A DNA stretch of 64,000 bases, from positions 1 through 64,000 of the forward strand of contig CASDPK010000005.1 of the NCBI GenBank assembly GCA_949282555.1, written 5' to 3'. The position numbers were made by a program, and so were the translations under genes. Numbering within the stretch: position 1 is the first letter of the stretch; each line of letters opens with the position of its first letter. The DNA is from an uncultured Lentisphaeraceae bacterium (lineage in GTDB: Bacteria; Verrucomicrobiota; Kiritimatiellia; RFP12; DVOR01). The notes under the pieces were generated by a model. The model did no database searches and was not told the origin of the DNA. It saw only the letters and a list, made by a program, of their open reading frames with translations. This document shows positions 2,846 through 57,187 of this stretch, one piece after another.

Positions 2846-3137
2846 TCGCAGAGCCTCTGTTCATCCCATTGCGGGCGAGTGGACGGTGGAATACAACGCC
2901 GAGAATCGCCCCATCCGCTGGACGCAGGGGAACAAGGTCATCACCATGGGCTTTGACCGCATGGGCCGGCGGGTCTTCTACAAGGAGATGGAGGGCAACC
3001 GCCAAATCACCCACACCGTCTTCCTCTACGATGGCTACCTCTGCATCCAGCAACTCTTCCCCAACAGCCCGTGGAACGTCTACAAGGAGTTCATTTGGGA
3101 TCCCACGGAGCCCCTCGCCAAAGGAACACACGAATGA
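2835..3137 (+). pseudogene. Orphan rhs fragment 2, truncated: repeat region only, no core and no toxin
   Basis: GEWTVEYNAENRPIRWTQGNKVITMGFDRMGRRVFYKEMEGNRQITHTVFLYDGYLCIQQLFPNSPWNVYKEFIWDPTEPLAKGTHE*. The roughly 245 nt at 2880-3125 is a near-identical direct repeat of 1180-1400. The frame ends before the YYNYRHYNP core. Confidence 0.6.
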
Positions 3138-19806: not shown

Positions 19807-20454
19807 TCAAAGCGCCCTGAGCAACAAATTCACCAACGGCACGAAAAAGTGACCATTCCAATTGAGCAGCCCCACCTGTACCGGCGACCGCCCAAAGTTG
19901 ATCAACCCAACCTGAAACCACCGAGGGCTCCCGGCATTGAGAACCCCGGCCTGAAAGCCCTGATAGGCCTCTGTGGGGGCGAAGTTGGCCACGCCCAATT
20001 GCACCAAATCGCCGGGGTTCGACTCAGCCCCGCGCCGAGCGAGATTGAGCACCCCGAGATGGGCGCCATCGAAGCGGTCGCCCGTCAGGTTCACGCCGCC
20101 CAGCAACACCCCCGCGCCACCGCCCGGCGTCAGATTCACGGCAGCGCCCTGCACGCCGACAAACCGCTCCGCCTGGGCGAAGATCGGGGACAGATGCAGT
20201 CCCCCACCCTGTTCCGAGACCATTCCCACCAAGGCCACCTGTCCGCCATAAAGCCGACCGCACCCACTGAACACCGCCAGCGAGGGCCCCGCCACCGTGG
20301 AAGCATCCTCCCAATAGAGCGCGAACCGCGAGCACGTCCATCCCGGAACCTCGCTTGCCGCGGCCGCATGGTTGCCGATTTGCGCGAGTCGGTTGTTGCA
20401 ACCCGCGAGCATCCCCGCGAGAAGCGCCAACGCCAAACCACCGCCACGCATCAT
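19807..20454 (-). CDS. Lipoprotein with degenerate G-[VL]-x-N short repeats
   Basis: MMRGGGLALALLAGMLAGC lipobox. Repeats include GVLNLA, GVANFA, GVLNAG, GLINFG and GLLNWN. It lies between the two SPFH genes. Confidence 0.55.
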   Translation of the reverse strand: MMRGGGLALALLAGMLAGCNNRLAQIGNHAAAASEVPGWTCSRFALYWEDASTVAGPSLAVFSGCGRLYGGQVALVGMVSEQGGGLHLSPIFAQAERFVGVQGAAVNLTPGGGAGVLLGGVNLTGDRFDGAHLGVLNLARRGAESNPGDLVQLGVANFAPTEAYQGFQAGVLNAGSPRWFQVGLINFGRSPVQVGLLNWNGHFFVPLVNLLLRAL

Positions 20455-25006: not shown

Positions 25007-25483
25007 TTAGTTGTGGAGTGTCAATAGATGTGCGAAGGGCATTTGAGAGAACTCGAAAAATACGCATGCATTAGATGACCTTTTTGGATGGGTGTGGATA
25101 GTGAATGATGGGCGGTAGCACCGTTCCCCATCTCGTTTACGCTCGTGGAGATAGAACGTGACATCCGTGGAGATGAGCTCATCGCAGGCATTGTAGCCAT
25201 TCTGTTCATCGTTGATAAAACGCAACAACAACCAAGGAAGGGTGTCCCCCTCTTCGATTTCCGCACATGTGCTCCCGCAAACACCATATGCGAATGCTAC
25301 CACATACTGGGACTCGTAGTAAAGAATACGCTCAGCAATGTCTCGCGAGCCTCTACCGAAAAGAAGAAACAACAACGTGACGTAGGGCACCACATTGTGC
25401 GATATAGTGCATCCGGGGGAGAGATGCGGAGCACCCCGAGGGGAGATATAGTGTGTCCCGTCAAATGCCGGATGGCGCCACAT
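25007..25483 (-). CDS. Hypothetical protein. The start is uncertain because the listed ORF extends antisense into the GH3 gene.
   Basis: Moderate-GC ORF. The internal Met at MWRHPAFDG was chosen to avoid overlap with the GH3 gene. No family recognised. Confidence 0.25.
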   Translation of the reverse strand: MWRHPAFDGTHYISPRGAPHLSPGCTISHNVVPYVTLLFLLFGRGSRDIAERILYYESQYVVAFAYGVCGSTCAEIEEGDTLPWLLLRFINDEQNGYNACDELISTDVTFYLHERKRDGERCYRPSFTIHTHPKRSSNACVFFEFSQMPFAHLLTLHN

Positions 25484-25610: not shown

Positions 25611-27917
25611 ATGAAGCGGCAGATACTCGGACTGGCCTTGACGGTGGCAGCGTTCTCCCCCACAGCCGTGGGCGCCCAGGGCATCGCGACCATCACTCCG
25701 ACGGAGGGCACACAGGGAATGCCCACAGGCTCGGTGGAGCGTGTGGCATTGGTGCGGCAGACAGATTCCCCGCCGGCAGATGCGCTTTATCGTGACCCGA
25801 AGCAACCCATCGAGGCCCGGGTGGAGGATTTGATGAAACGCCTCACGCCCGAGGAAAAAGCGCGGATGGTGCACGCCAGCAGCGGCTCCAGTTCGGGGAA
25901 CCTGCCGCGCGTCGGCCTTGCGAACGTCCGCACACTCGATGGCCCCAACGGCACACGGGCCGATCGCCCCGTCACCTATTTCCCTTCGGCCATTGCCTAT
26001 GCCGCAACGTGGGACATGGACTTGGTGGAGGAGATTGCGCGCACGCTGGGCAAAGAAACGCGCGCGGTTTACAAAACCGAAGAGAGCGGCGCGCGAATGC
26101 TGTTGGGCCCGGGCGCAAACATTGCCCGCACGCCGTTGGGTGCGCGCAACTTTGAATATTTCGGCGAAGACCCCCTCCTCTCGGGCAAAACGGCGGCGGC
26201 TTACTGCCGGGGCTTGCAATCGGTCAAAGTGTCGCCGTGCATGAAGCACTGGGTGCTGAACGATCAGGAGTGGTGCCGCACGGTGCTCGATGTCGATGTC
26301 CCCGACCGCGCCCTCCACGAGATTTACGCAAAACCCTTCGAGATCGCCGTGCGCGAAGCGGGCGTTTGGGCCGTGATGGGCAGCTACAACGCCGTGCGCG
26401 GGCACTATTCCTCGCATTCCTCGGAAATCAATGATCTGTTGCGCTCCTATGGATTCGATGGGGCGATTTATTCCGACTGGGGCGGCTGGCATGGCGACGT
26501 TCCCGCGCTCAATGGCGGCGCCACCTTGGAATCGGGCACTTGGCAGAATGCCGAGCGCGACCGCCGCAACGCGGAACAGGTGGCCAAAGGCATCATCCGG
26601 GCTGACCGTTTTGAGGATGCCGTGCGCCGCAATCTGCGCAACCTGTTCCGAATGGGCGCCTTTGACACGCAGACCGCCGAAGACAAGGCCGAACAGGCCG
26701 CCTACGAACGTGACTTCCGCTCCGAAGCCCATCGCCGCATCGCCCGGAAGGCCGCCGTCTCCTCCGCCGTTCTGCTCAAAAACAAGGATGGCTTCCTCCC
26801 GCTCAACCGCGAGAAGATCCGCACGGTGGCGCTCATCGGCCCCAATGCCGACCAGACCCACTCGATGATTGGCGGTGTGCACCTCAAGGATCGCGGCGGC
26901 AGCGGTGCGGTGCTCGCCGCACGGGAAGTGACGCCCCTCATGGCCTTTGTCGAAGCCTTCGGGAAGGAGAACGTTCTTTTCGCCCCCGGCTTCCGCTTCG
27001 AGAACACCGACCGCAAGGACGCCGTCTCCGTTCCGGGAATGCCCGCCATGGACCCCGTGGAGGCCGCCCGCCGCGCCGATGTCGTGATCTTCTGCGGCGG
27101 CTTGGACCATTCGCTCGACCGCGAGGTGCTTGGCTGGGGCCACATCAACCCCTCCGACCGCCCGAACCTTGAGCTCAAAGGCCCGCAGGCCGAGCTCATC
27201 AAGCGTGTCGCCGCCGTCAATCCGCGCACCGTCGTGGCGCTCACCATCGGCGCCCCCGTCTCCGTGGAGGCGTGGGAGGCCGCGGTGCCCGCCGTGCTCG
27301 TGACCTGGTATTCCGGCGAAGAGGGCGGAAACGCCCTTGTCGATCTCCTGTTCGGCAAAGAGAATCCCTCCGGGAAGCTCCCGTACACCTTCGGCAAGCA
27401 ATTGGAAGATTGGCCCTGCCACCGCATGGGGCCGGCCGTCTATCCCGGCGTCTTCACGCCCGAAGGCCCCTTCACCGCGCGGGAATATTACGCCGATGGC
27501 ATTTGGGTGGGCTATCGTGGGTTTGACCAATTCAAGCGCGAGCCACGGTATCCCTTCGGCTTCGGCCTCTCCTACACCACCTTTGCCATCTCCGAGGCCC
27601 CCTCCGACCCGCAACAGGGCATTTTCCGCGTGAAGGTGCGCAACACCGGCGCCCGCGCCGGGCGCGAAGTCGTGCAATGCTACGTTTCCAAGCCCAAGAC
27701 GGACGGCGAAGGGATGCCCGTCAAGGAACTCGTGGCCTTCGCCTCCGTGACGTTGGCGCCCGGGGAGGAACGGGTGGTTGAACTCGTCCCGAGCCCCGAC
27801 GCTTACCGCTACTGGAGCGAAAAGGCGAATGGTTGGCGGCCTGTCCGCGGCGAGTGCGTCTTCCGGATCGGCAATTCCTCGGCGAATCTGCCCGTCCGCC
27901 ACACGGTTCGCAAATGA
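25611..27917 (+). CDS. Glycoside hydrolase family 3 beta-glycosidase (BglX-like), secreted
   Basis: Signal peptide. Motifs KHWVLNDQE and GFDGAIYSDWGG (the GH3 catalytic Asp region), plus a C-terminal fibronectin-like domain. 768 aa. Confidence 0.85.
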   Translation: MKRQILGLALTVAAFSPTAVGAQGIATITPTEGTQGMPTGSVERVALVRQTDSPPADALYRDPKQPIEARVEDLMKRLTPEEKARMVHASSGSSSGNLPRVGLANVRTLDGPNGTRADRPVTYFPSAIAYAATWDMDLVEEIARTLGKETRAVYKTEESGARMLLGPGANIARTPLGARNFEYFGEDPLLSGKTAAAYCRGLQSVKVSPCMKHWVLNDQEWCRTVLDVDVPDRALHEIYAKPFEIAVREAGVWAVMGSYNAVRGHYSSHSSEINDLLRSYGFDGAIYSDWGGWHGDVPALNGGATLESGTWQNAERDRRNAEQVAKGIIRADRFEDAVRRNLRNLFRMGAFDTQTAEDKAEQAAYERDFRSEAHRRIARKAAVSSAVLLKNKDGFLPLNREKIRTVALIGPNADQTHSMIGGVHLKDRGGSGAVLAAREVTPLMAFVEAFGKENVLFAPGFRFENTDRKDAVSVPGMPAMDPVEAARRADVVIFCGGLDHSLDREVLGWGHINPSDRPNLELKGPQAELIKRVAAVNPRTVVALTIGAPVSVEAWEAAVPAVLVTWYSGEEGGNALVDLLFGKENPSGKLPYTFGKQLEDWPCHRMGPAVYPGVFTPEGPFTAREYYADGIWVGYRGFDQFKREPRYPFGFGLSYTTFAISEAPSDPQQGIFRVKVRNTGARAGREVVQCYVSKPKTDGEGMPVKELVAFASVTLAPGEERVVELVPSPDAYRYWSEKANGWRPVRGECVFRIGNSSANLPVRHTVRK

Positions 27918-32757: not shown

Positions 32758-35700
32758 TCAGTGATTCGGCATGACGCGCCCAAGGACACGACGGTATTCT
32801 ACGGGGAAGACCCGGACAAACCGGGGAAGCCAATCCCCTAGAGCCTCCATGATCCGACGCCCCTTGGGGCTCCCGGTCGCCGCGACATGGGCCGCAATCA
32901 AGGCGCGGAGTTCTTCAGCGGCTTCACTTCCAGGCTCCACGTTTTCGAGGTCAACGCTCTCCAGATTGCACCGGAGGTCAAAATCCCCCGTCTCATCGAG
33001 CACATACGCCAAGCCTCCGGTCATGCCCGCGGCGAAGTTACCGCCCGTCGGGCCAAGCACCAAGACCCGGCCGCCCGTCATGTACTCACATCCATGATCC
33101 CCGGTTCCTTCGCACGTGAGCGTGGCACCGGAATTCCGAATCGCAAAGCGTTCGCCCACAAGTCCGCCGATAAAGATCTTCCCGGCCGTGGCACCGTAGC
33201 CAATGACATTCCCGGCCACGACATTCGCCTCCGGCACAAATCCATCGACCACCGGAGGCCTCACAATGACCGTACCTCCGGAGAGCCCCTTGCCCACGTA
33301 ATCGTTGGCCTCACCCTCAAGGTCAAGTGTGACGCCCGCCGTGAGGAATGCCCCAAGGCTCTGCCCCGCGACCCCATGCAAGTGCGCCGTGAGCGTGCCT
33401 TCCGGCAAGCCCTCCCCTCCAAAATGGGCGGCGATTTCTCCGGCGAGCCCGGTCCCAACGGAACGATCCGTGTTCCGGACATCAAACGAGGCCTCTTGCG
33501 GCACAGGTTCCAAGCGGAAAGCGGGAATCAATTGTTCCCTGTCGAAGGTTCCCGCAGGCTCTTTCGCTTCGACCGGTTCCGGGGCGGAAGGCGTAACATG
33601 ACGAAAGACGGCCGAGAAATCCAATGCGGCGGCCTTTCCGATGGACGCTTCCGGATCGACGCACAGCAAATCCGATCGGCCACAAGCCTCGTCAAGGCTG
33701 CGCAATCCAAGCGACGCCAGCGTTTCGCGTGCCTCACGTGCCACAGACCGCAGGAAATTCACGATGTACTCCGGCTTCCCGGCAAACCGCTTGCGCAGTT
33801 CCGGATCTTGTGTCGCCACGCCGGCAGGACAGGTATTGCTGTGGCAGACGCGCATCATCACACAGCCCAGGCAGACAAGAATGGTCGTGGCAAATCCAAA
33901 CTCCTGTGCGCCCAGCAGCGCACCGATGACCACGTCGCGCCCTGTTCGGAGCTGACCATCCACCTGAAGACGCACGCGGTTGCGCAATCGGTTGAGCACG
34001 AGCGTCTGATGTGTCTCGGCAAGTCCCAATTCCCACGGCATTCCGGCATGGTGAATGGAGGAAAGCGGCGATGCGCCTGTTCCCCCGTCGTGCCCCGCCA
34101 CGAGAATGACGTCCGCATGTGCCTTGGCCACGCCAGCCGCGACTGTGCCCACGCCGGCTTCCGACACGAGCTTGACGGAGATCCGAGCCTTTGGATTGAC
34201 CGTGCGGAGATCGTAAATCAGTTGCGCCAAATCCTCAATGGAGTAAATGTCATGATGCGGCGGCGGCGAAATGAGCGTGAGCCCGGGCACGGCATGGCGA
34301 AGACGTGCCACAAAGGCATCCACCTTGTGCCCGGGGAGCTGCCCACCCTCACCGGGCTTGGCCCCCTGGGCCATCTTGATTTGGAGATCGCGGGCATGGC
34401 GAAGATAATCCGCCGTCACCCCAAAGCGTCCCGAAGCCACCTGCTTGATGGCGCTTCCCCGCTCGGTTCCGAACCGTTCGGCATTCTCACCGCCTTCACC
34501 GGAATTGCTCATTGCGCCAATGGCGTTCATGGCCCGGGCAATGGTCTCATGGGCCTCCGGGCTCAGCGACCCAAGGCTCATGGCTCCGGAAACGAAATGG
34601 CGCAAGATCGCCTCCTCTGGCTCCACCTCCTCCAGCGGGATCGCCTGCGTCGGAACGAACCCGAAACATCCACGCAACGTGCAAAGTCGGTGTGCCTGAT
34701 GGTCAATCGCGTCGGAATAGCGCCGAAAAAGCGTATAGTCCCCCTCTCGCACGGCTTGACGGAAATCCGCCAAAGATTGTGGCGTCCATAGATGGCGTTC
34801 GCCATCCGCCCGCCACTGATGCTCACCTCCGGCGGGAAGAATCGGCCCTTTGGCCTGCGGTGCGGCCTCTCCGCCCTCTCCATGGGACAACCCATTGCGA
34901 CGATTCGCATCACGCGCGACATCGTCAAGCCCAATGCCGCCAATCCGGCTGACCGTTCCCGGAAGATAGCGGGAAACCAGCTCTTCCCCAAGGCCGACAG
35001 CCTCGAAAAGCTGCGCAGAGCGATAGGAGCGGAGCGTTGAGATGCCCATCTTGGACATCACCTTGAGAATCCCTTTATCCACCGCGCGGATATAGTTGCC
35101 CGTCGCCGTGACAGGATCGCATCCCGTAAGGCCGCGCGCGGAGAGGTCCGCCACCGTCGCCAATGCAAGCCAAGGATGAATGGCCGTGGCGCCATAGCCC
35201 AGCAGAAGCGCAAAGTGCATGACCTCACGCACCTCACCGGACTGCACCACCAGTCCCGTTTCCGAGCGCAAACCCGCCTCCGTGAGGGCCCGATTGACCG
35301 CGGCAACGGCCAAAAGCGAGGGGATTGGCGCCTCTTCGGCGCTAAGATCCCGGTCTGAAAGGATCACGATCCGATGTTCCCGCGCGGCAGAGACCGCCTC
35401 GTCAGCCAATCGCTCCAGTGCGTCAGCCAAAGCGATCCCATCGCCTCCCGCAGGGAAGGCCAAGCGCAACGTGACAGGCCTAAACTCTTCCGCACCCACA
35501 CGCCCAAGGTGTTCAAGCTCGGCATCCGTCAGCACCGGGCGACGCATCTTGATCAGGCGGGCGTGGGCCGGCGTCTCCGCAAGAATGTTGGCCCGATTGC
35601 CGACATAGGTCATCAAGCTCATGACCGAGCGTTCGCGGATAGGATCGATGGGCGGATTGGTGACTTGCGCGAAGCGTTGCTTGAAGTAATCGAACAGGAG

Positions 35701-37206
35701 GCGAGGCCGATCGGAAAGCACGGCCAATGCGGCATCGTTGCCCATGGAGCCGACGGGTTCCTGCCCCTGCGTCGCCATCGGGCGAAGAATCGTGGAAACG
35801 TCCTCCCGCGTGTAACCGAAACGCAGCTGACGTTCGGCAAGATCGCCGGGCACCGCCTCGGGAGCCGTCTCCCGGAAAAGGCCATCCACCGTGATACGGT
35901 TCTCCTCCACCCATCGACGATACGGACGGCGCCGTGCGACGTGGGCCTTGATTTCCGCATCATTCAGCAAGCGATGGGCCTCCAAATCCAGCCAAAGCAT
36001 CTCTCCGGGACGCAACCGTCCACGGCGGGCGACGGCCTCCGGCGGGAAATCAAGCACGCCCGTTTCGGAAGCCAACACAAACGTGCCATCTTTGCACAGC
36101 GTGTATCGGGCAGGGCGCAGGCCATTGCGATCCAAGACCGCACCTGCGCGCACACCATCGGAAAAGACGGCCGCCGCCGGTCCGTCCCACGGCTCCATCA
36201 GTGCCGAATGATATTCCAAAAAGCCGCGCACATCATTGCCCATGGCGTGTGTCGGCCCCCATGCCTGCGGCATCAGCATCAGCATGGCATGGGGCAACTC
36301 CCGCCCCGCCCGAACAAGCAATTCCAACATATTGTCAAGGCAAGCGGAGTCCGACTGCCCCGGCGGCACCAGCGGAAGCACCTTGGCCAAATCGACCCCG
36401 AACAATGGACTCTCAAAGCCACCTTCCCGTGCGCGGAGCGCGTTGAGGTTCCCGCGCAACGTGTTGATCTCACCATTGTGCGCAAGCAGACGGAAGGGTT
36501 GCGCGAGGTTCCATGTGGGGAAGGTGTTGGTGCTGTAACGCTGATGGGCAAGCACCAACGCGGAAGCGAAATCCTCCGCCCTCAAATCCTCGTAAAAGGC
36601 GTCCAACTGATGCGCCAGCAACAACCCTTTGTAAACCACACTCCGTGCGGACAGACTGCAAACGTACAAATCCTCACCCAACGCCTTCTCCAACCGCCGC
36701 CGGGCGACAAACAGTTTCCGCTCGAACGCCTCCCCTTGTCCCGTCAACGCCTCCCCCGTGGATTCCGCCACAAACACTTGGCGGATTCTGGGACAGGTGG
36801 CGCGGGCAGAACGCCCAATGGCCTCGGGATGGATTGGGACCTCACGCCATGCGAGCGTCTTCAACCCCTCCTCCGCCAAAAGGGCCTCCATCTGTGCCTC
36901 CCGGCCTTCCCCGCCAAACACCATCGCCACGCCATAGGTTCCCGGGGAGGGAAGATGGGGAAGACGTGCGCGGAAAAAGGCATCCGGCAGGGCAACCAAA
37001 ATGCCCGCACCGTCCCCCGTCTCGGGGTCCCACCCCGCCGCACCGCGATGCGTCAGCCGCCGAAGCACCGTCAATCCCTGTTCCACGATCCGATGGCTGG
37101 GATGGTTATTAAGGTCAGCCACCATCCCCACGCCGCACGCATCGTGCTCATTTTGTGGATCATAGAGGCCCTGTCGAGGCGGAAAACTGGTCGATTGTCC
37201 GTACAT
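32758..37206 (-). CDS. gltB: Glutamate synthase large subunit
   Basis: 1482 aa. Ntn amidotransferase start ...HDACGVG, FMN and Fe-S central domains, and a C-terminal GXXG repeat domain. Confidence 0.95.
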   Translation of the reverse strand: MYGQSTSFPPRQGLYDPQNEHDACGVGMVADLNNHPSHRIVEQGLTVLRRLTHRGAAGWDPETGDGAGILVALPDAFFRARLPHLPSPGTYGVAMVFGGEGREAQMEALLAEEGLKTLAWREVPIHPEAIGRSARATCPRIRQVFVAESTGEALTGQGEAFERKLFVARRRLEKALGEDLYVCSLSARSVVYKGLLLAHQLDAFYEDLRAEDFASALVLAHQRYSTNTFPTWNLAQPFRLLAHNGEINTLRGNLNALRAREGGFESPLFGVDLAKVLPLVPPGQSDSACLDNMLELLVRAGRELPHAMLMLMPQAWGPTHAMGNDVRGFLEYHSALMEPWDGPAAAVFSDGVRAGAVLDRNGLRPARYTLCKDGTFVLASETGVLDFPPEAVARRGRLRPGEMLWLDLEAHRLLNDAEIKAHVARRRPYRRWVEENRITVDGLFRETAPEAVPGDLAERQLRFGYTREDVSTILRPMATQGQEPVGSMGNDAALAVLSDRPRLLFDYFKQRFAQVTNPPIDPIRERSVMSLMTYVGNRANILAETPAHARLIKMRRPVLTDAELEHLGRVGAEEFRPVTLRLAFPAGGDGIALADALERLADEAVSAAREHRIVILSDRDLSAEEAPIPSLLAVAAVNRALTEAGLRSETGLVVQSGEVREVMHFALLLGYGATAIHPWLALATVADLSARGLTGCDPVTATGNYIRAVDKGILKVMSKMGISTLRSYRSAQLFEAVGLGEELVSRYLPGTVSRIGGIGLDDVARDANRRNGLSHGEGGEAAPQAKGPILPAGGEHQWRADGERHLWTPQSLADFRQAVREGDYTLFRRYSDAIDHQAHRLCTLRGCFGFVPTQAIPLEEVEPEEAILRHFVSGAMSLGSLSPEAHETIARAMNAIGAMSNSGEGGENAERFGTERGSAIKQVASGRFGVTADYLRHARDLQIKMAQGAKPGEGGQLPGHKVDAFVARLRHAVPGLTLISPPPHHDIYSIEDLAQLIYDLRTVNPKARISVKLVSEAGVGTVAAGVAKAHADVILVAGHDGGTGASPLSSIHHAGMPWELGLAETHQTLVLNRLRNRVRLQVDGQLRTGRDVVIGALLGAQEFGFATTILVCLGCVMMRVCHSNTCPAGVATQDPELRKRFAGKPEYIVNFLRSVAREARETLASLGLRSLDEACGRSDLLCVDPEASIGKAAALDFSAVFRHVTPSAPEPVEAKEPAGTFDREQLIPAFRLEPVPQEASFDVRNTDRSVGTGLAGEIAAHFGGEGLPEGTLTAHLHGVAGQSLGAFLTAGVTLDLEGEANDYVGKGLSGGTVIVRPPVVDGFVPEANVVAGNVIGYGATAGKIFIGGLVGERFAIRNSGATLTCEGTGDHGCEYMTGGRVLVLGPTGGNFAAGMTGGLAYVLDETGDFDLRCNLESVDLENVEPGSEAAEELRALIAAHVAATGSPKGRRIMEALGDWLPRFVRVFPVEYRRVLGRVMPNH

Positions 37207-37486
37207 GGGATTCCTTTCTAGTCGTTCCCCTCTCTTGCAACATCCATGCCAAACCTCTCCTGCCCCATCCTTTCGGGGCTACAGCACGCCCTCCTCCCGT
37301 TCAAAAAGAACAAAATTGTAATACCCCAATCTACCGCCAAAAGACAACGCCCACACAACCCCCGAGAAATCAAATGGAAGGCTTCCCGGTTTACAAAAAC
37401 GAAATATCATATATAAGGAATTACATAACTGTAATTCCCACCTTTTCCCAACCGGGAGCTCTTCCATTCATAACCGATCCTTATAG

Positions 37487-37545
37487 GAGAGGCTCCGTAT
37501 CACAACGTGCGATACGGAGCCTCTCGTGTCGGGATACGGAGGGTT
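37487..37545. promoter_or_regulatory. Perfect 15-bp inverted repeat GAGAGGCTCCGTATC-N9-GATACGGAGCCTCTC plus a third half-site, in the gltB/glnA divergent intergenic region
   Basis: Read directly from the sequence. The same 15-mer with reverse-complement partners recurs at about 56984-57062. Confidence 0.5.
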
Positions 37546-37690
37546 TCCAAATCCCTTGCACTGGGACGGGAATCAAAAAACACCGTTTATTTTCCCCTCT
37601 CCCCAACGTTTGGCACGCCCATTGCAAAGAATGTTGTCGGACACATTTCCACAACAGAATGCCTCCGACCAACCCCAACCCAAGGAAGCC

Positions 37691-39757
<2,067 letters not shown>

Positions 39758-39766
39758 GTCCGCGCC

Positions 39767-41491
39767 ATGTCCGACCCTCTGAAACATGAATGCGGCGTGG
39801 CGCTCCTCCGGCTCCGGAAGGATGCGGCCTATTACGAAAAGAAGTACGAAACGCGTTCGTACGGCTTTCAGAAGGTCGCCCTTATGCTGGAGAAGCAACA
39901 CAACCGGGGCCAGGACGGTGCGGGCCTTGCGTGCCTCCACCTCCACCCCGGGCAGGGCCGCCCCTGTTACGATCTGGAGCGTTCGGTAGCCCCACTTCCC
40001 CTTGCCGATCTGATCGCACGGTGCAGCCGTCGCCTCTCCGAAGACCCCCTCGCCTTCCGCGGGGAGGTCTTTCTCGGTCATCTGCGCTATGCCACCTTTG
40101 GACGACATGACCTCTCGGCCTGCCACCCCTTTGTCCGAGACAGTGCCTTCCTTGACCGCCTGCTCCTGCTTGCGGGAAACTTCAACCTCACCGACACCCG
40201 CGAACTCTCCGAAGCTCTCGCCGCCTCCGGCCACCATCTGCCCAGCACCGCCGATGGCGCGGTGATTTTGCAATGCCTCACCCACGCACTGGAGCGTGAA
40301 CGTTCCCGCCACGGGGATTTGCGCGGGTTGGCTCCTATCCTACGCGCCGCGGCAAGCCGATTCGATGGAGCCTTCGTTCTCTGCGGCACCACCGGGCAAG
40401 GCGATGCCTTCGCCCTGCGCGATGCCAATGGCATCCGACCGGCCTACTATTACGTGGACGAGGAAGTGGCCGTGGTTGCCTCCGAGCGGCCCGCCATCCA
40501 AGCGGCGTTTGATCGCCCCACAGGAGAGGTCCACGAGTTGCCTCCCGGCAAGGCCTTGCTCATTCATCCCAACGGCACGGTGGAGCTTCAGGACTGCCTC
40601 GACCCCGCCCCACGCCGAGCGTGTGTCTTTGAGCGCATCTATTTCTCCCGTGCCAACGATGCCGAAATCCACGCCGAGCGCAAACACTTGGGCCACGCAC
40701 TCGTGCCGCAGATTGTCCGCGCGCTCGGCGGCGATTTGGGACATGCCTTCGTCAGTTACATCCCGAACTCCGCGCAAGTCTGCTTCCACGGGCTCTTGGA
40801 AGCGCTCTTGGCCGTGGCATTGCACGATGGGCACACCGTCCGCTTCGGGCAAGTGGCGGTGAAAGACGCGAAGTTTCGCACGTTCATCGCCGATGCCGAG
40901 GCTCGCAAAGGGCTTGCCATGCACGTCTACGACGTCACCTACGGGCTCGTGCGGCCCGGTTCGGACACGCTCGTGGTGCTCGATGACTCTATTGTGCGCG
41001 GGAACACGATGCGCAACGCCATCCTGCCTGTGCTCGACCGTCTTGGCCCCAAACACATCATTGTGGCCAGTTCGGCCCCGCCGGTCCTTTATCCCGATTG
41101 TTACGGTATCGACATGGCCACGCTCCGCGAGTTGGTCGCCTTCAACGCACTGGTTGATTGCCTGCCCGAAGGCGCCCTCGCAGACGCTTATGCCGAAGCT
41201 CGCCGACAATTGGCCCTGCCCGCGGCAGAACAGAGCAACGTGTTGCGTTCGCTCTATGCCCTCGTGCCTTTACCCACCCTTATTGAAGCCATCGCCCGGC
41301 GTCTGCGCCCCGAAGGCTTGCGTGCCGGTTTGACGCTTGTCTTCCAAACGGCGGAGGATCTCCGGCGTTGCTGCCCGAACCACACGGGAGACTGGTACTT
41401 CACGGGCGATTATCCCACCCCCGGCGGCGTGCAAGTGGCCAATCGTGCCCTCGTCAACTACATGGAGCATCGCGATGAACGCGCTTACTGA
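39767..41491 (+). CDS. purF: Amidophosphoribosyltransferase-like protein (class-II glutamine amidotransferase plus PRTase), with an N-terminal propeptide
   Basis: ...KHECGVALL (Cys after a short propeptide, as in Bacillus-type PurF), the PRTase motif VVLDDSIVRGNTMRN, and a C-terminal SSAPPVLYPDCYGID Fe-S-type motif. At 574 aa it is longer than canonical PurF. Confidence 0.6.
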   Translation: MSDPLKHECGVALLRLRKDAAYYEKKYETRSYGFQKVALMLEKQHNRGQDGAGLACLHLHPGQGRPCYDLERSVAPLPLADLIARCSRRLSEDPLAFRGEVFLGHLRYATFGRHDLSACHPFVRDSAFLDRLLLLAGNFNLTDTRELSEALAASGHHLPSTADGAVILQCLTHALERERSRHGDLRGLAPILRAAASRFDGAFVLCGTTGQGDAFALRDANGIRPAYYYVDEEVAVVASERPAIQAAFDRPTGEVHELPPGKALLIHPNGTVELQDCLDPAPRRACVFERIYFSRANDAEIHAERKHLGHALVPQIVRALGGDLGHAFVSYIPNSAQVCFHGLLEALLAVALHDGHTVRFGQVAVKDAKFRTFIADAEARKGLAMHVYDVTYGLVRPGSDTLVVLDDSIVRGNTMRNAILPVLDRLGPKHIIVASSAPPVLYPDCYGIDMATLRELVAFNALVDCLPEGALADAYAEARRQLALPAAEQSNVLRSLYALVPLPTLIEAIARRLRPEGLRAGLTLVFQTAEDLRRCCPNHTGDWYFTGDYPTPGGVQVANRALVNYMEHRDERAY

Positions 41492-42599
41492 TACATTCCG
41501 TGCCCGTTGGGCGGCCCAGCGGGCACATACCGCTTACCTGGCCCTTGCCGATGGCGCCATATTCCACGGTGTTGCCTTTGGTGCGCGAAAAGATACGCTT
41601 GGCGAAGCCGTTTTCAACACCGGCATGACCGGCTATCAGGAAATCCTCACCGATCCCTCTTATGCCGGGCAGTTCGTCGTGCTCACCACGCCGGAGGTCG
41701 GCAACACCGGATGCAACCCCGAGGATGAGGAAAGCCGCGCGCTTTTCCTGAGTGGGCTGATCGTGCGAGAGGTCAATCCCCCCAGCAATTATCGAGCGAC
41801 CGAAAGCCTTGAGAATTATCTTGCGCGGCACGGACGCCCTGGATTGGCAGGCGTGGACACGCGGGCGATCACCCTCCATCTCCGTGACCATGGCGCCCAA
41901 AAGGCCTTTCTTCACGTGGAGGACACTCCGCTTCCGGAATCCGAAGCCGTTGCCCGTGCCCGTGCATGGGTGGGACTTGACGGACAAGATTATGCCGCAC
42001 GCGTTTCCACGCCTTCGCCCTACACATGGAATGCCGAGGGGCGTTTCCGTGTAACGGTCTATGACTTCGGCGTGAAGCGCAACATTCTGAGGTGTTTGGC
42101 CGCGCAGGGATGCCAGGTGTCGGTGGTGCCGGCCCAAACTCCCGCCGCAGAGGTCTTGGCTGAACGGCCTGACGGCGTTTTCCTCTCCAACGGTCCCGCC
42201 GACCCTTCTGCCCTACCCTACGCACAGGAGAATATCCGTGCCCTTCTGACGGTTGGCATCCCATTGATGGGGATTTGCCTCGGGCACCAACTTTTAGGCT
42301 TGACGTGTGGGGCCCGGTGCATGCGCCTCCCCTTCGGACATCATGGATGCAATCATCCCGTGCGAAACTTGCTTGACGGTTCGGTGGCCATCACCAGCCA
42401 AAACCACAACTACGCGCTTTCCGATCTTCCCGAAACATTGGAACTCACCCACGTGAACCTCAATGATGGGACGGTGGAGGGAATCCGGCATCGCACACTC
42501 CCGGCCTACAGCGTTCAGTTTCACCCCGAAGCGGCCCCCGGCCCACACGAGGCACAGGCCCTCTTTCGTCCCTTCCTTTTTTTGATGGAGCACGCATGA
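41475..42599 (+). CDS. carA: Carbamoyl-phosphate synthase small (glutaminase) subunit
   Basis: Class-I GATase triad region GICLGHQLL and the CarA N-domain. The start overlaps the purF-like 3' end. Confidence 0.9.
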
Positions 42600-44221
42600 G
42601 CACCAAACACATTTTTGTCACCGGTGGTGTGGTGAGCAGCCTCGGCAAAGGCGTCACCGCAGCGGCCTTGGCCTTCCTTCTGCGCCAGCGCGGCTATCGG
42701 GTGGCCATGCAGAAACTTGACCCCTACCTGAATGTCGATCCCGGCACCATGAGTCCATACCAACACGGTGAAGTTTTCGTCACCGATGACGGCGCGGAAA
42801 CCGATCTCGATTTGGGGCACTATGAGCGCATTGCCGGCGTCACCTGCTCCAAAGCCTCCAACTACACCAGTGGGCGGATCTATGGTGCGGTGATCGCCCG
42901 CGAACGCGCAGGCGGCTATCTCGGTGCCACCGTTCAAGTGATTCCACACATCACGGATGAAATCAAGCAGGCCATGCGTGCCCTTCATGCCCCCGACGTT
43001 GACATCGCCATCACCGAAATCGGCGGCACGGCAGGCGACATTGAGAGTTTGCCCTTTCTGGAGGCCGCGCGACAATTCCGAATGGAAGGGGAGCCTGGAG
43101 ACACGCTTTTCATCCATCTCACTTATGTGCCCTACCTCAAAGCCGCCAAAGAACTCAAGACCAAGCCGTCTCAGCAATCCGTGGGAGTGCTTCGAAACAT
43201 CGGGATACAGCCCGACCTGCTCATCTGCCGGGCCGAACGGCGCTTGGAGCCCGAGCATCTTCGGAAGCTCGCAGTCTTTTGCAACGTTCCGGAACGCTGT
43301 GTCATCGAAGAACTGGACGTCCGCCACTCTATCTACGAAGTGCCGATCCGCCTTTCGCAACGTCGGCTTGACGAACAGGCCCTGCTCGGTCTGCGTCTGA
43401 CGCCGCGCTCCCTTGACCTGCGCGACTATCGCCATTGGCTCGCCGGGGTGCTCCGCCCCACCCATGAGGTGACAATCGCCGTTGTCGGCAAGTACATCCG
43501 GCATCAGGATGCCTATAAAAGCATTTACGAAGCGCTCTCCCATGCCGCCATGGCTCACGGCGCGAAACTCCATCTTCTGCGCGTGGAGGCGGAGGAACTT
43601 GAACAGGACAATATCACCGAACGGCTCGGCAAAGCCGATGGCATCCTCGTGCCGGGCGGATTTGGGCAACGTGGACTTGCGGGCAAACTCCGTGCCGTGC
43701 GCTTTGCTCGTACACATCATGTGCCGTTCCTCGGCATCTGTCTTGGGATGCAATGCGCCGTCATTGAATTCGCGCGAAACGTTCTGGCGTGGGCCGATGC
43801 CGACAGTGCCGAGTTTGCTGAGACCACTCATCCCGTCATTGCCCTCATGGAAGAGCAAAAAGGCCTCAAAAACATGGGGGGCACCATGCGACTGGGGGCC
43901 TACGCTTGTGATCTCACCCCAGGCTCTCTGGCGGCCCGACTTTATGGGACAACACACATTTCCGAGCGACATCGCCATCGTTACGAATTCAACGGAGCCT
44001 TCCGTGCGGATCTTGAATCCGCGGGCTTGTCCGTTTCCGGAACGAACCCCGACACGGGACTCGTAGAGGTTGTGGAGCTTCCGCAACATCCCTTCTTCAT
44101 TGGATGCCAGTTCCACCCTGAATTCAAGTCGCGTCCACGTCTGCCCCATCCGCTTTTCGATGGTCTTATCGCGGCGGCGCTGGCTCGCCGCACCCATTCC
44201 CAAGAGGCCCTCCATGCCTAA
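42596..44221 (+). CDS. pyrG: CTP synthase
   Basis: [20 protein letters not shown]..., C-terminal GATase GICLGMQ. 541 aa. Overlaps the carA stop by ATGA. Confidence 0.95.
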
Positions 44222-47200
44222 ACGCACCGACATTCACAAGATTCTTCTCATCGGTTCCGGCCCCATCGTCATTGGCCAGGGATGCGAGTTTGACTACTCC
44301 GGCACTCAGGCGTGTAAGGCCCTGCGCGCCGAAGGTTACGAGGTCGCCCTCGTCAACTCCAATCCCGCCACCGTGATGACCGACCCAGCCACCGCCGATC
44401 GTACGTACATCGAACCGATGACACCCGAAAGCCTCGAGGCCATCATCGCCCGTGAACACCCCGACGCACTTCTCCCCACATTGGGTGGGCAAACCGCTCT
44501 CAATCTTTCCATGGAGCTCTATCGCCGCGGTATTCTTGGGCATTATGGCGTGGAGATGATCGGTGCGAATGCCGCCAGTATCGATCGCGCCGAGGACCGA
44601 CAGAAGTTCAAGGAAGCCATGCTTGCCATCGGGCTCGACGTTCCCCGCTCCGGGTCTGCCCATACCCTTGCGGAGGCTCGTGCCATCGCGAAAAACATCG
44701 GCTCTTGGCCACTCATCATTCGCCCGGGCTTCACCCTCGGTGGGACCGGCGGCGGCATCGCCCAAGACGCGGAGGCCTTTGACCGAATCGCACAGGGAGG
44801 GCTTGATGCCTCCCCCACGTCCGAAATCCTGATCGAAGAATCGCTCCTCGGCTGGAAAGAGTTCGAGATGGAGGTCGTCTGCGACCGCAAGGGAAACGCC
44901 GTCATCGTCTGTTCCATTGAGAACCTCGACCCCATGGGCGTACACACGGGCGACTCCATTACCGTCGCCCCCATTCAGACGCTCACGGACGTGGAATATC
45001 AAGCCATGCGCGACGATTCCTTCGCCGTGATGCGCGCCATTGGCATCGCGACGGGGGGCTCCAACGTTCAGTGGGCCGTGGACCCCAAGACTGGCCGCCG
45101 CATCATCATTGAGATGAACCCCCGCGTCTCGCGTTCCTCCGCCTTGGCCTCAAAAGCCACGGGGTTCCCCATCGCCAAGATTGCCGCGCTTTTGGCTGTC
45201 GGGTTCACGCTCGACGAGCTCCGCAACGACGTTACGGGAACCACCCCGGCATCCTTTGAGCCGGCCCTTGACTATGTCGTCGTGAAAGCCCCTCGCTTCG
45301 CGTTTGAGAAGTTCCATGGCGCCGATGACACACTGGGCACCCAAATGAAATCCGTTGGCGAGGCAATGTCCATCGGGCGGACCTTCAAAGAGGCATTGCA
45401 AAAGGCATTCCGTTCGCTTGAGACGGGCCGTGCAGGCTTCGGCGCAGATGGGAAGGACGCGCCATTCGAAAGCCTTTCCGATGAGGCGCTTGCCGAAGCC
45501 CTCTCTCGGCCCACCGTCAACCGTCTCTTCTTCGTCCGCGCGGCCTTTCGCCGTGGCTGGTCGGTTGACAACGTTCACGCGCTCACCGCCATCGACCCTT
45601 ACTTTCTCCGCCACCTTCAAGAGCTCGCGCTCTATGAAGACGAGATTGCCACCCATGAGCGGCTGGAAGCGTTCACTGCCGACCCCGAATGTCTGCGCCA
45701 AGCGAAGGCAATGGGCTTCTCCGATCGTCAAATCGCCCATCTTCTCCACACCGACGAACTCGCCGTGGCTGCCGCCCGTCGGCATCTTGGAGTGTTCCCA
45801 AGCTACGGCCTCGTGGACACCTGTGCCGGCGAGTTCGCCGCCCAAACGCCCTACTATTACGGCACCTACGGCAGCCCCGACACAACGTGCCCCCAAGGTC
45901 ACAATCGTCCACCTTCCATCCTGATCATTGGCGGCGGCCCCAACCGTATCGGGCAAGGAATTGAGTTTGACACCTGCTGTTGCCAAGCCGCAAGTGCCCT
46001 GCGCGCCCTCGGTTACCGTGTGGTCATGGCGAATTCCAATCCTGAGACCGTCTCCACCGATCCGGACACTTCCGATGCCCTCTACTTTGAGCCGCTCACG
46101 CTGGAAGATCTTGTCGGCGTTTATGAACGTGAACAGTGCATTGGAGCAATCGTCCAGTTCGGCGGACAAACGCCTCTCAACCTCGCTCAAGCCCTCAAGG
46201 CTGCCGGGGTCCGCATTCTTGGCACCAGCCCGGACGACATCGACCTTGCAGAAGATCGTGACCAGTTCCGCACCCTTGCCGACCGCATTGGCATTCTTCA
46301 GCCCCCCAGTGGAATCGCCCACTCCGTCGAGGATGCCATTGCCATTGCCGAACGGATCGGCTATCCGGTCCTCGTCCGGCCCAGCTTTGTTTTGGGCGGA
46401 CGCGGCATGGTGATTGTCCGGCGGCGAGAGGATCTGGAGGAGCTTGCCCGCCAAGCCGTCGAAATCGCCGAGGGGAAACCAATCCTCATCGACCGTTTCT
46501 TGGAAAACGCCGTCGAGCTCGACGTGGATAGCGTGAGCGACGGCCAAGGGAACACCGTCGTTGGGGCGATTTTGGAGCACGTGGAGCCCGCGGGTGTCCA
46601 CTCCGGAGATGCCGCCTGCGTGACGCCGCCCATCTCGCTTCCTCCGCCCATTCTTGAACGTATTCGGGCGTATGCCCAAGCCTTCGCCTCCGCCCTCCAC
46701 GTCCAAGGGTTGATGAATCTCCAGCTCGCCGTCCGTGAGGGGGAGATCTACATCATCGAGGTCAATCCCCGCGGCTCACGAACGGTTCCCTTTGTCAGCA
46801 AAGCCATCGGCCTTTCGCTTGCGGCGGTCGCCGCGCGTGTCATGGTCGGGAAAAGCCTTGCCGAAGCCGGCCTTCCCCACGAACGCCATCCCCCTTGTTT
46901 CGCGGCGAAGGAATCCGTCTTCCCCTTTGCACGTTTCCCCGGTGCCGCCATTGCGCTCGGCCCCGAAATGAGATCCACCGGAGAAGTGATGGGGCTCGCG
47001 CCCACCTACGGTTTGGCCTATCTCAAGAGCCAAATCGCCGCCGGCACCTGTCTGCCACGTCCGGACGCCAAACGAAATGCAATCTTTCTCTCTTTGTGCG
47101 ACACGGACAAGGAGAAAGGCGTCGAAGCCGCCAAAAAACTCGCGACAATGGGTTTCCCCCTCTATGCCACTCGTGGCACCGCAACAGCCCTTTGGGCCGC

Positions 47201-47480
47201 AGGACTCCGCCCCAATGCCGTTTTCCGCATCGGCGAAGGCCATCCCAACGCCCTCGATCTGATTCGTGAAGGGGCCATCGGCTGGGTCGTCAATACCGCC
47301 GGCACCGGGGCGGATCACGCAGGCGATGGCCTTCGCATCCGCGCAGAGGCGCTCCTCCACGGCCTCCCCATCACCACCGTGCGCGAAGGATTCCTCGCCG
47401 CCGTGGAAGGGCTCGCCGAATGGCACGGAGGGCACCCCAACACCCCACGCACCCTCCAAGAGCTTCACGGAGAGCCGTAA
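44214..47480 (+). CDS. carB: Carbamoyl-phosphate synthase large subunit
   Basis: About 1088 aa, duplicated ATP-grasp halves ([21 protein letters not shown]... twice) and an MGS-like C-terminus. The start overlaps the pyrG end. Confidence 0.95.
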
Positions 47481-56420: not shown

Positions 56421-56825
56421 CTAATCCCGAGAAATCACCCTTACCTTCTCTTTGGGAGGGATGCACCAACGACGACAGAAAGATGGAGTATCTCCCGGGT
56501 CCAACGACCAATCCAAAAGGACATCCGTCTTTTTGTCGAACAAATAATGTGGCATTGAAGATGGAAAATGAAAAGGTTTCAACCACCACGGCATACGGTC
56601 GAAATTCAACGCGTAAACGACAATCCGTCTCCCCGCATGCTCGTACTCATAACTGAAGTGGACATCATGCTCATTTTTAGAAAGAAAGGACTGCCTTGTT
56701 TCCCCCTCTGAAGGAGCATAGAGTGCATCACTTCTAAGTGCGGTATAAACACCTCCAAACAAAAAGAAACAACCCATTGCAATCAAAGCAAGGGCACCAC
56801 AACAACTTCTCTTCGAGATTCTCAT
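56421..56825 (-). CDS. Hypothetical lipoprotein, low-GC orphan
   Basis: MRISKRSCCGALALIAMGC lipobox. About 134 aa. Low GC relative to the neighbours. Confidence 0.35.
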   Translation of the reverse strand: MRISKRSCCGALALIAMGCFFLFGGVYTALRSDALYAPSEGETRQSFLSKNEHDVHFSYEYEHAGRRIVVYALNFDRMPWWLKPFHFPSSMPHYLFDKKTDVLLDWSLDPGDTPSFCRRWCIPPKEKVRVISRD

Positions 56826-56983
56826 GAGGGCTCCTCCTTTCGCTCTGCTCACGTTACATTACATCGTATGATTTTTTCGCGTAGATATCAAACAAAAGTG
56901 CCAGCAGACGTTGTCCTGTCCTCGCGCGTTCACACAGAGCACCTACAAACGAACGTGCCGCGTAACCCCCAGGAGCCACGCAC

Positions 56984-57062
56984 GAGAGGCTCCGTATCCG
57001 CCGTGGGGATGCACTATGTCTCAACGTGAGATACGGAGCATCCCGATGGCACATACGGAGCC
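56984..57062. repeat. Second copy of the GAGAGGCTCCGTATC motif with two reverse-complement partners (GAGATACGGAGC, CATACGGAGCC) and a nested GGGGATGC/GCATCCC pair
   Basis: Read directly from the sequence. It lies upstream of folP on the plus strand. Confidence 0.5.
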
Positions 57063-57187
57063 TTCGGAGAAAAGGGGGTCGGGAGAAGAGATCCATCCCC
57101 TTCCGTCTCGATCTTTGAGCGCACGTTTTCGCAGAAACTCGCCCTTTTTACAGGACGTTTTCCCGCCTTTTTGCTATACTTCTGCTT

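Follow-up and report, generated by a model that had tools for sequence, protein, structure and literature searches.

The window analysed here is the whole stretch of 64,000 nt, a sequence that is also present in ENA and Logan assemblies. It belongs to an uncultured gut bacterium of the Kiritimatiellia, and its close homologues bear the names Candidatus Spyradenecus or Kiritimatiellia. Two divergent intergenic spacers within it are of particular interest. One separates gltB (32758-37206, minus strand) from the glnA-III operon (37691-47480), in which glnA-III is followed by genes for a class-II amidotransferase, carA, pyrG and carB. These four genes are glutamine-using or pyrimidine genes, and the gene order of the operon is also found in L001-L008, L012 and L014. 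The other spacer separates a 134-aa ORF (56421-56825, minus strand) from the folP operon. A preliminary description of this DNA had placed a recurrent palindromic element upstream of folP-cdaA; the position holds, and the operon is corrected to folP-cdaA-ybbR-ABC_transp_aux/DUF4350-DUF4340-HisKA.

A perfect sigma-54 promoter, TGGCACGCCCATTGCA (TGGCAC-N5-TTGCA), lies at 37611-37626 on the plus strand, directed toward glnA, and an 11/12 match at 37251 on the minus strand is directed toward gltB. The same divergent pair is found in L007 (1202, 2431) and L012 (422, 2468), while L014 has one such promoter at glnA. On the basis of these matches, divergent sigma-54 promoters (11-12 of 12) are predicted to drive gltB and glnA-III. 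The exact palindrome TTACA-N4-TGTAA is confined to sigma-54 gltB-glnA spacers (Table 1), and is likely the better candidate for the site of a nitrogen regulator or enhancer-binding protein in this clade. Upstream of folP a TTTGCTATACT box is located at 57170-57180, and is kept upstream of folP in L179 and L181. In these Kiritimatiellia TTTGCTATACT recurs as a promoter-like box of the extended -10 type, at a distance of 10-60 nt before start codons. The 134-aa ORF is preceded by the sequence TGGCAC-TTTTG-TTTGAT (56898-56903, minus strand), which resembles a sigma-54 -24 box; the -12 GC is missing from it, and strain L170 has a mutation in the GG.

The sequence of 56984-57062 upstream of folP reads letter for letter as it had been described (component motifs in Table 1), and the exact 15-mer GAGAGGCTCCGTATC does recur 19 kb away in the glnA spacer, on the plus strand. 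We found a third exact copy, absent from the preliminary description, at 37511-37525 on the minus strand, which brings the count in the window to three (37487+, 37511-, 56984+). With up to three mismatches allowed there are 8 matches against 1.39 expected, a number reached by 0/100 shuffles. The 9-mer core CTCCGTATC/GATACGGAG is, at zero mismatches, confined to the two window loci (37493+, 37511-, 37533-; 56990+, 57030-), with a further copy at one mismatch at 57052-. The two loci also share an exact 18-mer, GATACGGAGCCTCTCGTG, and the spacer motif CAACGTG; another exact 18-mer, ACGTGAGATACGGAGCAT, is common to the folP locus and the relative L009. This confirms that the recurrence of the 15-mer is real and non-random.

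The 22-bp module and its dispersed copies

Both window loci have the same architecture, which consists of one inverted unit, a short spacer and two or three direct 22-nt units starting with GATACGGAG. At each locus the two downstream GATACGGAG copies are spaced exactly 22 nt apart, and the forward and reverse copies are 18 nt apart at one locus and exactly 22 nt further apart (40 nt) at the second. The element is built from a 22-bp module that reads approximately GATACGGAG-(C/T)CTCTCG-NGGTGA, of which GATACGGAGTCTCTCGGGGTGA and GATACGGAGCCTCTCGTGTCGG are examples. The module is not itself palindromic; the palindrome of the preliminary description arises because the inverted module pairs with a direct module, and the 15-mer sits inside the inverted module. 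Each copy of the element contains one inverted module, a short spacer and head-to-tail direct modules, and occurs in one of two forms. The short form (W1, L2) has two direct modules, a length of about 60 bp and a 9-nt spacer, whereas the long form (W2, W3, L1, L3) has three direct modules, a length of about 85 bp and a 31-nt spacer, so that the two spacers also differ by exactly 22 nt. Both forms are found in both species that carry the element (Table 1).

Five long-form sequences, representing four loci and a strain variant of one of them, can be aligned gap-free along 87 nt. Degeneracy in the long form affects the first module, and in the same way across species and loci (GATGCACTATGTCTC at folP in W2, GATGCACTATATCCC at mutS in L188), and GATATAGTGCATC is common to L1 and W4. 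The 7-nt centre of this module occurs in both directions (GAT-GCACTAT-ATC versus GAT-ATAGTGC-ATC) and appears flipped in L1 and W4, as would be expected from a hairpin-mediated inversion or strand-switch at the DNA level. Across copies it is the sequence of two boxes, GAGAGGCTCCGTATC and GTGAGATACGGAG, and not pairing that is constant; the boxes are kept even in copies that have no good hairpin.

Table 1. Coordinates of the element copies, their parts and the associated sites.
Feature	Position	Strand	Context or remark
W1, short form	37487..37547	+	divergent gltB/glnA-III spacer
W1 inverted unit GAGAGGCTCCGTATC	37487-37501
W1 9-nt spacer ACAACGTGC			between inverted and direct units
W1 direct unit GATACGGAGCCTCTCGTGTCGG	37511-37532
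W1 next-unit start GATACGGAGGGTTTC	37533-37547
W2, long form	56981..57067	+	divergent spacer, 134-aa ORF/folP
W2 inverted unit CACGAGAGGCTCCGTATC	56981-56998		spacer after it
W2 degenerate unit GATGCACTATGTCTCAACGTGA	57008-57029
W2 unit GATACGGAGCATCCCGATGGCA	57030-57051
W2 partial unit CATACGGAGCCTTCGG	57052-57067
15-mer GAGAGGCTCCGTATC	56984-56998	+	within W2, the folP-upstream copy
GGGGATGC	57005-57012		within W2
GAGATACGGAGC	57028-57039		within W2
GCATCCC	57038-57044		within W2
CATACGGAGCC	57052-57062		within W2
W3, long form	L184 20718-20801		between GH2 and ABC-permease genes, 8 kb past window end
W4, diverged	25401..25466	+	three tandem 22-nt units GATATAGTGCATCCGGGGGAGA, GATGCGGAGCACCCCGAGGGGA, GATATAGTGTGTCCCGTCAAAT
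L1, long form	L187 ~3010-3078		sulfatase/PHP spacer, second species
L2, short form	L187 9793-9856		pckG-glnA spacer, second species
L3, long form	L187 20407-20480		111-aa ORF/mutS spacer, second species
Degenerate-module centres compared	window 57008-57022 versus 25401-25413; L187 ~3036-3050; L188 ~20433-20447
TTACA-N4-TGTAA sites	window 37421-37434; L007 1379, 1525, 1554; L012 1531
Further TTTGCTATACT sites	window 54661	-
Further TTTGCTATACT sites	L179 2462; L181 2414; L011 2463
Bacteroidota array contigs	L117-L168 (L140 3294-3370; L117 8138-8267; L152 6602-6753), L089, L106

The diverged copy W4 was found by nhmmer with the long-form profile at E = 5.6e-5 and is not part of the training alignment. 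The score of 68 bits obtained for W2 is not independent, as W2 is one of the five training sequences. The short forms W1 and L2 also match the long-form profile. In total, the window species has 4 copies in 73 kb and the species represented by L187 has 3 copies in 22 kb around glnA; any estimate of copy number per genome is an extrapolation from these seven known loci.

All seven element loci are extragenic, and at every one of them a start codon follows 100-170 nt downstream, with promoter-like boxes about 65-135 nt downstream. Five of the seven are in divergent spacers and none is in a spacer between convergent genes. From the end of W1 it is 63 nt to the sigma-54 -24 box and 143 nt to the glnA ATG, W2 ends about 108 nt upstream of the TATACT in the conserved TTTGCTATACT box, and the end of W4 is separated by 145 nt from a GH3 glycosidase gene starting at 25611. 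W1 and W2 are consequently placed upstream of the predicted promoters and outside the predicted leaders. A script-based scan gave no sigma-54 match of at least 10/12 near W2 or in L009, and only -10-like boxes were seen at W3, W4, L1 and L3, as judged by eye, leaving W1 as the only copy with a sigma-54 promoter downstream, at about the 70-150 bp expected of an upstream activating sequence (W2 and L009 by script; W3, W4, L1 and L3 by eye). The neighbouring genes have no common functional theme.

Occurrence in relatives and variation between strains

The second carrier species (contigs L009, L010 and L187-L190) has a GlnA 78% identical to that of the window and a different synteny, in which pckG is followed by glnA. 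Its copy is located about 150 nt upstream of glnA in the orientation opposite to that of W1 (L009/L187); the reverse complement of the L009 copy reads GAGAGGCTCCGTATC-CCCACGTGA-GATACGGAGCATTCC-ATGTGCGA-AGACGGAGC. The region upstream of glnA is thereby occupied by the element in both carrier species, which are found together in sample ERZ16268096. The element is absent upstream of glnA in L012 (GlnA 92%), L007 (87%), L014 (84%), L015 (76%) and L011 (72%), and upstream of folP in L179 (FolP 83%) and L181 (67%), and a profile search of 47 kb from seven other relatives returned no copies. The closer relatives without the element keep the sigma-54 glnA promoter, TTACA-N4-TGTAA and the folP TTTGCTATACT box. 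Specifically, L007, L012 and L014 have 12/12 sigma-54 promoters and no element, and L007 and L012 have the exact TTACA-N4-TGTAA. Such a patchy distribution, with the element in two species that live together, is a hint of horizontal spread.

Outside the promoter boxes the spacers of relatives cannot be aligned with the window, and for this reason no clean empty site could be defined in them. No target-site duplication was evident at the borders of the aligned copies, and no strain lacking a copy was seen among the 4-11 strains available per locus. No transposase or RAYT was identified among the part of the window ORFs checked with Pfam and the gene calls available, the element pattern had no match in collections of viral contigs, phages and plasmids, and literature searches by sequence string and topic found no published description of the Kiritimatiellia element.

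The spacer upstream of glnA seems to gather repeats in this clade. In L015 (2310-2440) it contains tandem 8-9-nt repeats, TAGGACGAA and CCGTTCTC, each three to four times; in L012 (364-2500) the 2.1-kb gltB-glnA spacer is full of inverted CCTCA-rich repeats. In L007 the glnA sigma-54 promoter is closely preceded (2313-2395) by an array GGGCGGGGC / CCCGCCCCG / CCGGGGCGG / CCGGGGCGGG, in which the last two copies are spaced 22 nt apart, and then by TTCTTTTTT. We considered the CCGGGGCGG array as a co-varying counterpart of the element and rejected it, as it looks more like a terminator-type GC hairpin with a T-run and its folding does not exceed that of shuffles (z = -1.1); this suggests that an upstream transcript ends there.

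Variation between strains is uneven. Variable sites number 1/79 in the element and 30/329 in the flanks at W2, 2/61 and 21/423 at W1, and 6/64 and 19/251 at L2. At L1 they number 1/69 in the element and, as an estimate, about 10/157 in the reliably aligned flank (raw count 60/226), while L3 has 11/74 in the element, including a 5-nt indel, and an unreliable flank figure due to partial failure of the alignment. Flank variation is roughly 5-9%; W2 and L1 fall below their flanks, and at L2 and L3 the differences between strains extend to core bases. This uneven polymorphism fits copies at different stages of decay, and it leaves room for some constraint by protein binding.

Folding, regulation and dispersal as explanations

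Whichever strand is folded, W1 and W2 give strong hairpins, with z between -5.5 and -8.3. The interleaved, mutually exclusive hairpins proposed for the folP copy were recovered: the minimum-energy fold nests GGGGATGC/GCATCCC in an outer stem, and in an alternative fold of 56984-57062 the left arm pairs with the middle copy, which excludes the nested fold. These properties would suit a cis-regulatory RNA (riboswitch or attenuator) or a multicopy sRNA common to the glnA and folP-cdaA leaders and coupling nitrogen to folate/c-di-AMP, as would the strong folds of W1, W2 and L2 (z = -3.9 to -8.3) and the ability of the left arm to pair with either of two downstream copies. We nevertheless consider such an RNA very improbable. 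The predicted promoters lie downstream of the element (37611; 57170, the latter kept in L179 and L181), and the glnA copy is reversed in L009/L187, whereas a leader RNA needs a fixed orientation. At four of the seven loci (W3, L1, L3 and W4) folding does not surpass that of shuffled sequence (z = +0.9 to -1.5). Covariation contributes a term of only 0.04 kcal/mol in RNAalifold, pairs in the five long-form sequences being either invariant or broken, and W1 has no compensatory changes between strains (the variable positions 37489 and 37520 are not partners). There is no terminator-like site after W1 or W2, no Rfam family was matched at the gathering threshold in the window, with only noise in both spacers at E <= 10, and the element is absent at the orthologous genes of relatives. 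A glutamine, c-di-AMP or PyrR-type RNA element, prompted by ACGGAG and GAGAGGCU, was rejected on the same grounds of no Rfam match and a position upstream of promoters. The link between nitrogen assimilation and folate/c-di-AMP that had been suggested, whether through an RNA or an operator, is not supported by these observations or by the unrelated neighbouring genes; moreover, the candidate nitrogen site that is conserved in the gltB-glnA spacer, TTACA-N4-TGTAA, is not the palindrome of the element. Chance recurrence of the 15-mer, or unrelated hairpins with a like stem, can draw on the fact that hairpins with the 10-bp stem GCTCCGTATC/GATACGGAGC are common in unrelated genomes (at least 100 matches, in Streptomyces, Acidobacteriaceae, Firmicutes terminators and others). 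It is already refuted, and keeps next to no probability, given the three exact 15-mers of the 64-kb window and its shared 18-mers (0/100 shuffles reach the count), a three-part, 22-nt-phased architecture at seven loci, and the profile matches of W1, L2 and, from outside the training set, W4.

We favour, as reasonably probable, the explanation that the element is a lineage-restricted dispersed intergenic repeat, probably non-autonomous and mobile, of the REP/BIME/MITE kind. This reading is supported by copies that adjoin unrelated genes, by the resemblance of non-orthologous copies from two species along their entire length, by a varying number of modules, by intermediate relatives without the element, and by indifference to orientation, the element being reversed at glnA. 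The small REP/MITE-like repeat family of the preliminary description is in this respect upheld by more copies in unrelated intergenic sites of two species, by short and long forms that recur across species, and by the absence of the element from the orthologous glnA and folP spacers of closer relatives. The same description had looked to further copies and to conservation in relatives; copies were found, and the orthologous sites of closer relatives are without the element. The main rival, which we regard as rather unlikely, is that the element serves some abundant DNA-binding protein, such as a global regulator, a nucleoid-associated protein or an enhancer-binding protein, as an operator or upstream-activating array. 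Dimers of the protein would bind the inverted pair CTCCGTATC/GATACGGAG and direct units phased by two helical turns (22 bp), and the array would influence many promoters, those of glnA and folP included. Spacing quantised in 22-bp steps agrees with such an array, as do boxes GAGAGGCTCCGTATC and GTGAGATACGGAG that survive where the hairpin does not, the position of all seven loci relative to start codons and promoter-like boxes, the location of W1 63-124 nt upstream of a perfect sigma-54 promoter, the copy upstream of glnA in two species, and the lower polymorphism of W2 and L1 compared with their flanks. However, the same promoters in all closer relatives are without the element, yet the promoter and TTACA-N4-TGTAA are kept. 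Parts that would make no contact, including the degenerate unit, are conserved between non-orthologous copies, which points to common descent by copying. Just one locus in seven is followed by a sigma-54 promoter, a polymorphism in one strain disrupts the sigma-54-like box near W2, core bases vary at L2 and L3, and the neighbours have no functional theme. An NtrC-like upstream activating sequence was likewise rejected as the main reading, since relatives keep the promoter without the element and it is TTACA-N4-TGTAA that is the conserved palindrome.

If the element is a dispersed repeat, the whole module set would be copied and pasted into promoter-distal intergenic DNA, most likely by a trans-acting protein that recognises the module, such as a transposase or a domesticated recombinase. 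Hairpins may form in single-stranded DNA during spread, copies would decay after insertion, and any effect on glnA or folP would be incidental, for example through protein-bound or bent DNA. The position 100-170 nt upstream of start codons could reflect a promoter-related function rather than survivorship. It can alternatively be explained by survivorship, with insertions persisting only where they are promoter-distal, near the middle of spacers of 300-480 nt.

Known repeat systems and the Bacteroidota arrays

The closest known kinds of element are REP/REPIN/BIME elements and bacterial MITEs. The former are short extragenic repeats of Proteobacteria, in which inverted copies and a spacer can form a hairpin in single-stranded DNA or mRNA (Bertels and Rainey 2011, PMC3116915; PMC3337134). 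The Kiritimatiellia element resembles them in having copies scattered in the intergenic DNA of unrelated genes, in the use of one motif in mosaic, alternating orientations within lineage-restricted families, and in that doublets are better conserved than decaying singlets. It differs in its non-palindromic 22-bp module, present as one inverted and two to three direct copies, whereas a REPIN is a symmetric doublet of palindromic REPs; the imperfect-palindrome unit in a symmetric inverted doublet that defines REPs is not found in the element. Unlike REPs, it is on the 5' side of genes at all seven loci. REPIN-RAYT systems are reported to be mainly vertically inherited (10.1101/2022.05.22.493013), and the occurrence of the element in two non-sister species and not in intermediate relatives fits horizontal spread better than such inheritance.

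The element is 60-85 bp long, non-coding, bounded by inverted repeats, intergenic, multicopy and patchy in distribution. Bacterial MITEs such as Correia/NEMIS, RUP and ERIC are likewise small, non-coding, inverted-repeat-bounded, intergenic, multicopy elements with a patchy occurrence among related genomes. Unlike MITEs, the element is asymmetric, with one unit on the left and two or three on the right, and neither a target-site duplication nor a matching autonomous IS was seen. The ends of Tn7 (TnsB sites) and Mu (MuA sites) contain several transposase-binding sites of about 22 bp, which are direct within an end and inverted between ends. The likeness of the element to them, in its repeated units of about 22 bp, is purely architectural; its arms enclose neither cargo nor a transposase, and its sequence is not similar to theirs. 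NtrC-type enhancers (UAS) are located upstream of sigma-54 glnA promoters. W1 resembles these as a palindromic multi-site array 63-124 bp upstream of a perfect TGGCAC-N5-TTGCA promoter; it differs in that it is not conserved together with the sigma-54 promoter in relatives.

In a metagenome scan we used a strict three-box pattern derived from the element. The 52 stretches obtained represent 14 distinct loci, all Bacteroidota-like (40-52% GC, with SusC/TonB-type, DUF4251 and similar neighbours), and none of the 52 is a match of the Kiritimatiellia type. These loci are palindromic arrays with 3-9 tandem 11-nt repeats per arm, a core GrTACGGAG and a short centre such as TATAG (for example, CTCCGTATCTG CTCCGTACCAA ... 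TATA ... GATACGGAGCAG GTACGGAGCAG). They are intergenic, in most cases with a gene start 75-215 nt downstream, and have unrelated neighbour genes; Bacteroides timonensis and Bacteroides sp. UBA939 also carry 11-nt arrays, among the matches listed. The arrays correspond to no Rfam family and gave no match in the collections of phages, plasmids and viral contigs, and no published description of them was found in the literature searched. They share with the Kiritimatiellia element an identical core, GATACGGAG/CTCCGTATC, direct copies that face inverted copies around a short centre, and spacing in multiples of 11, features that the search pattern itself required. They differ in a period of 11 rather than 22 nt, in 3-9 copies per arm, in having no CTCTCG...GTGA half-module, and in belonging to low-GC genomes of a different phylum. 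It is doubtful, though conceivable, that the element and the Bacteroidota arrays form one cross-phylum class of helically phased arrays, recognised by one family of DNA-binding or transposition proteins that would pass horizontally between gut anaerobes. The arrays would then prefer sites 75-215 nt ahead of gene starts and influence the architecture of promoters.

A scan of a genome collection with the pattern GCTCCGTATCN{7,33}GATACGGAGC gave at least 100 matches, mostly unrelated hairpins of Streptomyces and Acidobacteriaceae and terminators, with no Kiritimatiellia genome among the matches listed. Two conserved hairpin loci with the 10-bp stem GCTCCGTATC/GATACGGAGC and conserved flanks were noticeable among them, in at least about 25 Streptomyces genomes (including L019, L025, L035, L043 and L049) and at least about 30 Acidobacteriaceae genomes (including L021, L023 and L027). 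The hairpins of these two groups that were examined had no Rfam match.

These results remove a tempting regulatory inference, namely that an operator or RNA couples glutamine synthesis to folate/c-di-AMP, and they add a small modular repeat family for the poorly studied uncultured gut Kiritimatiellia. The family may be of use for marking strains or lineages and for tracing the protein that mobilises or binds it. If the core in common with the Bacteroidota arrays is not coincidental, it would point to a broader class of phased intergenic arrays among gut bacteria that is as yet undescribed.
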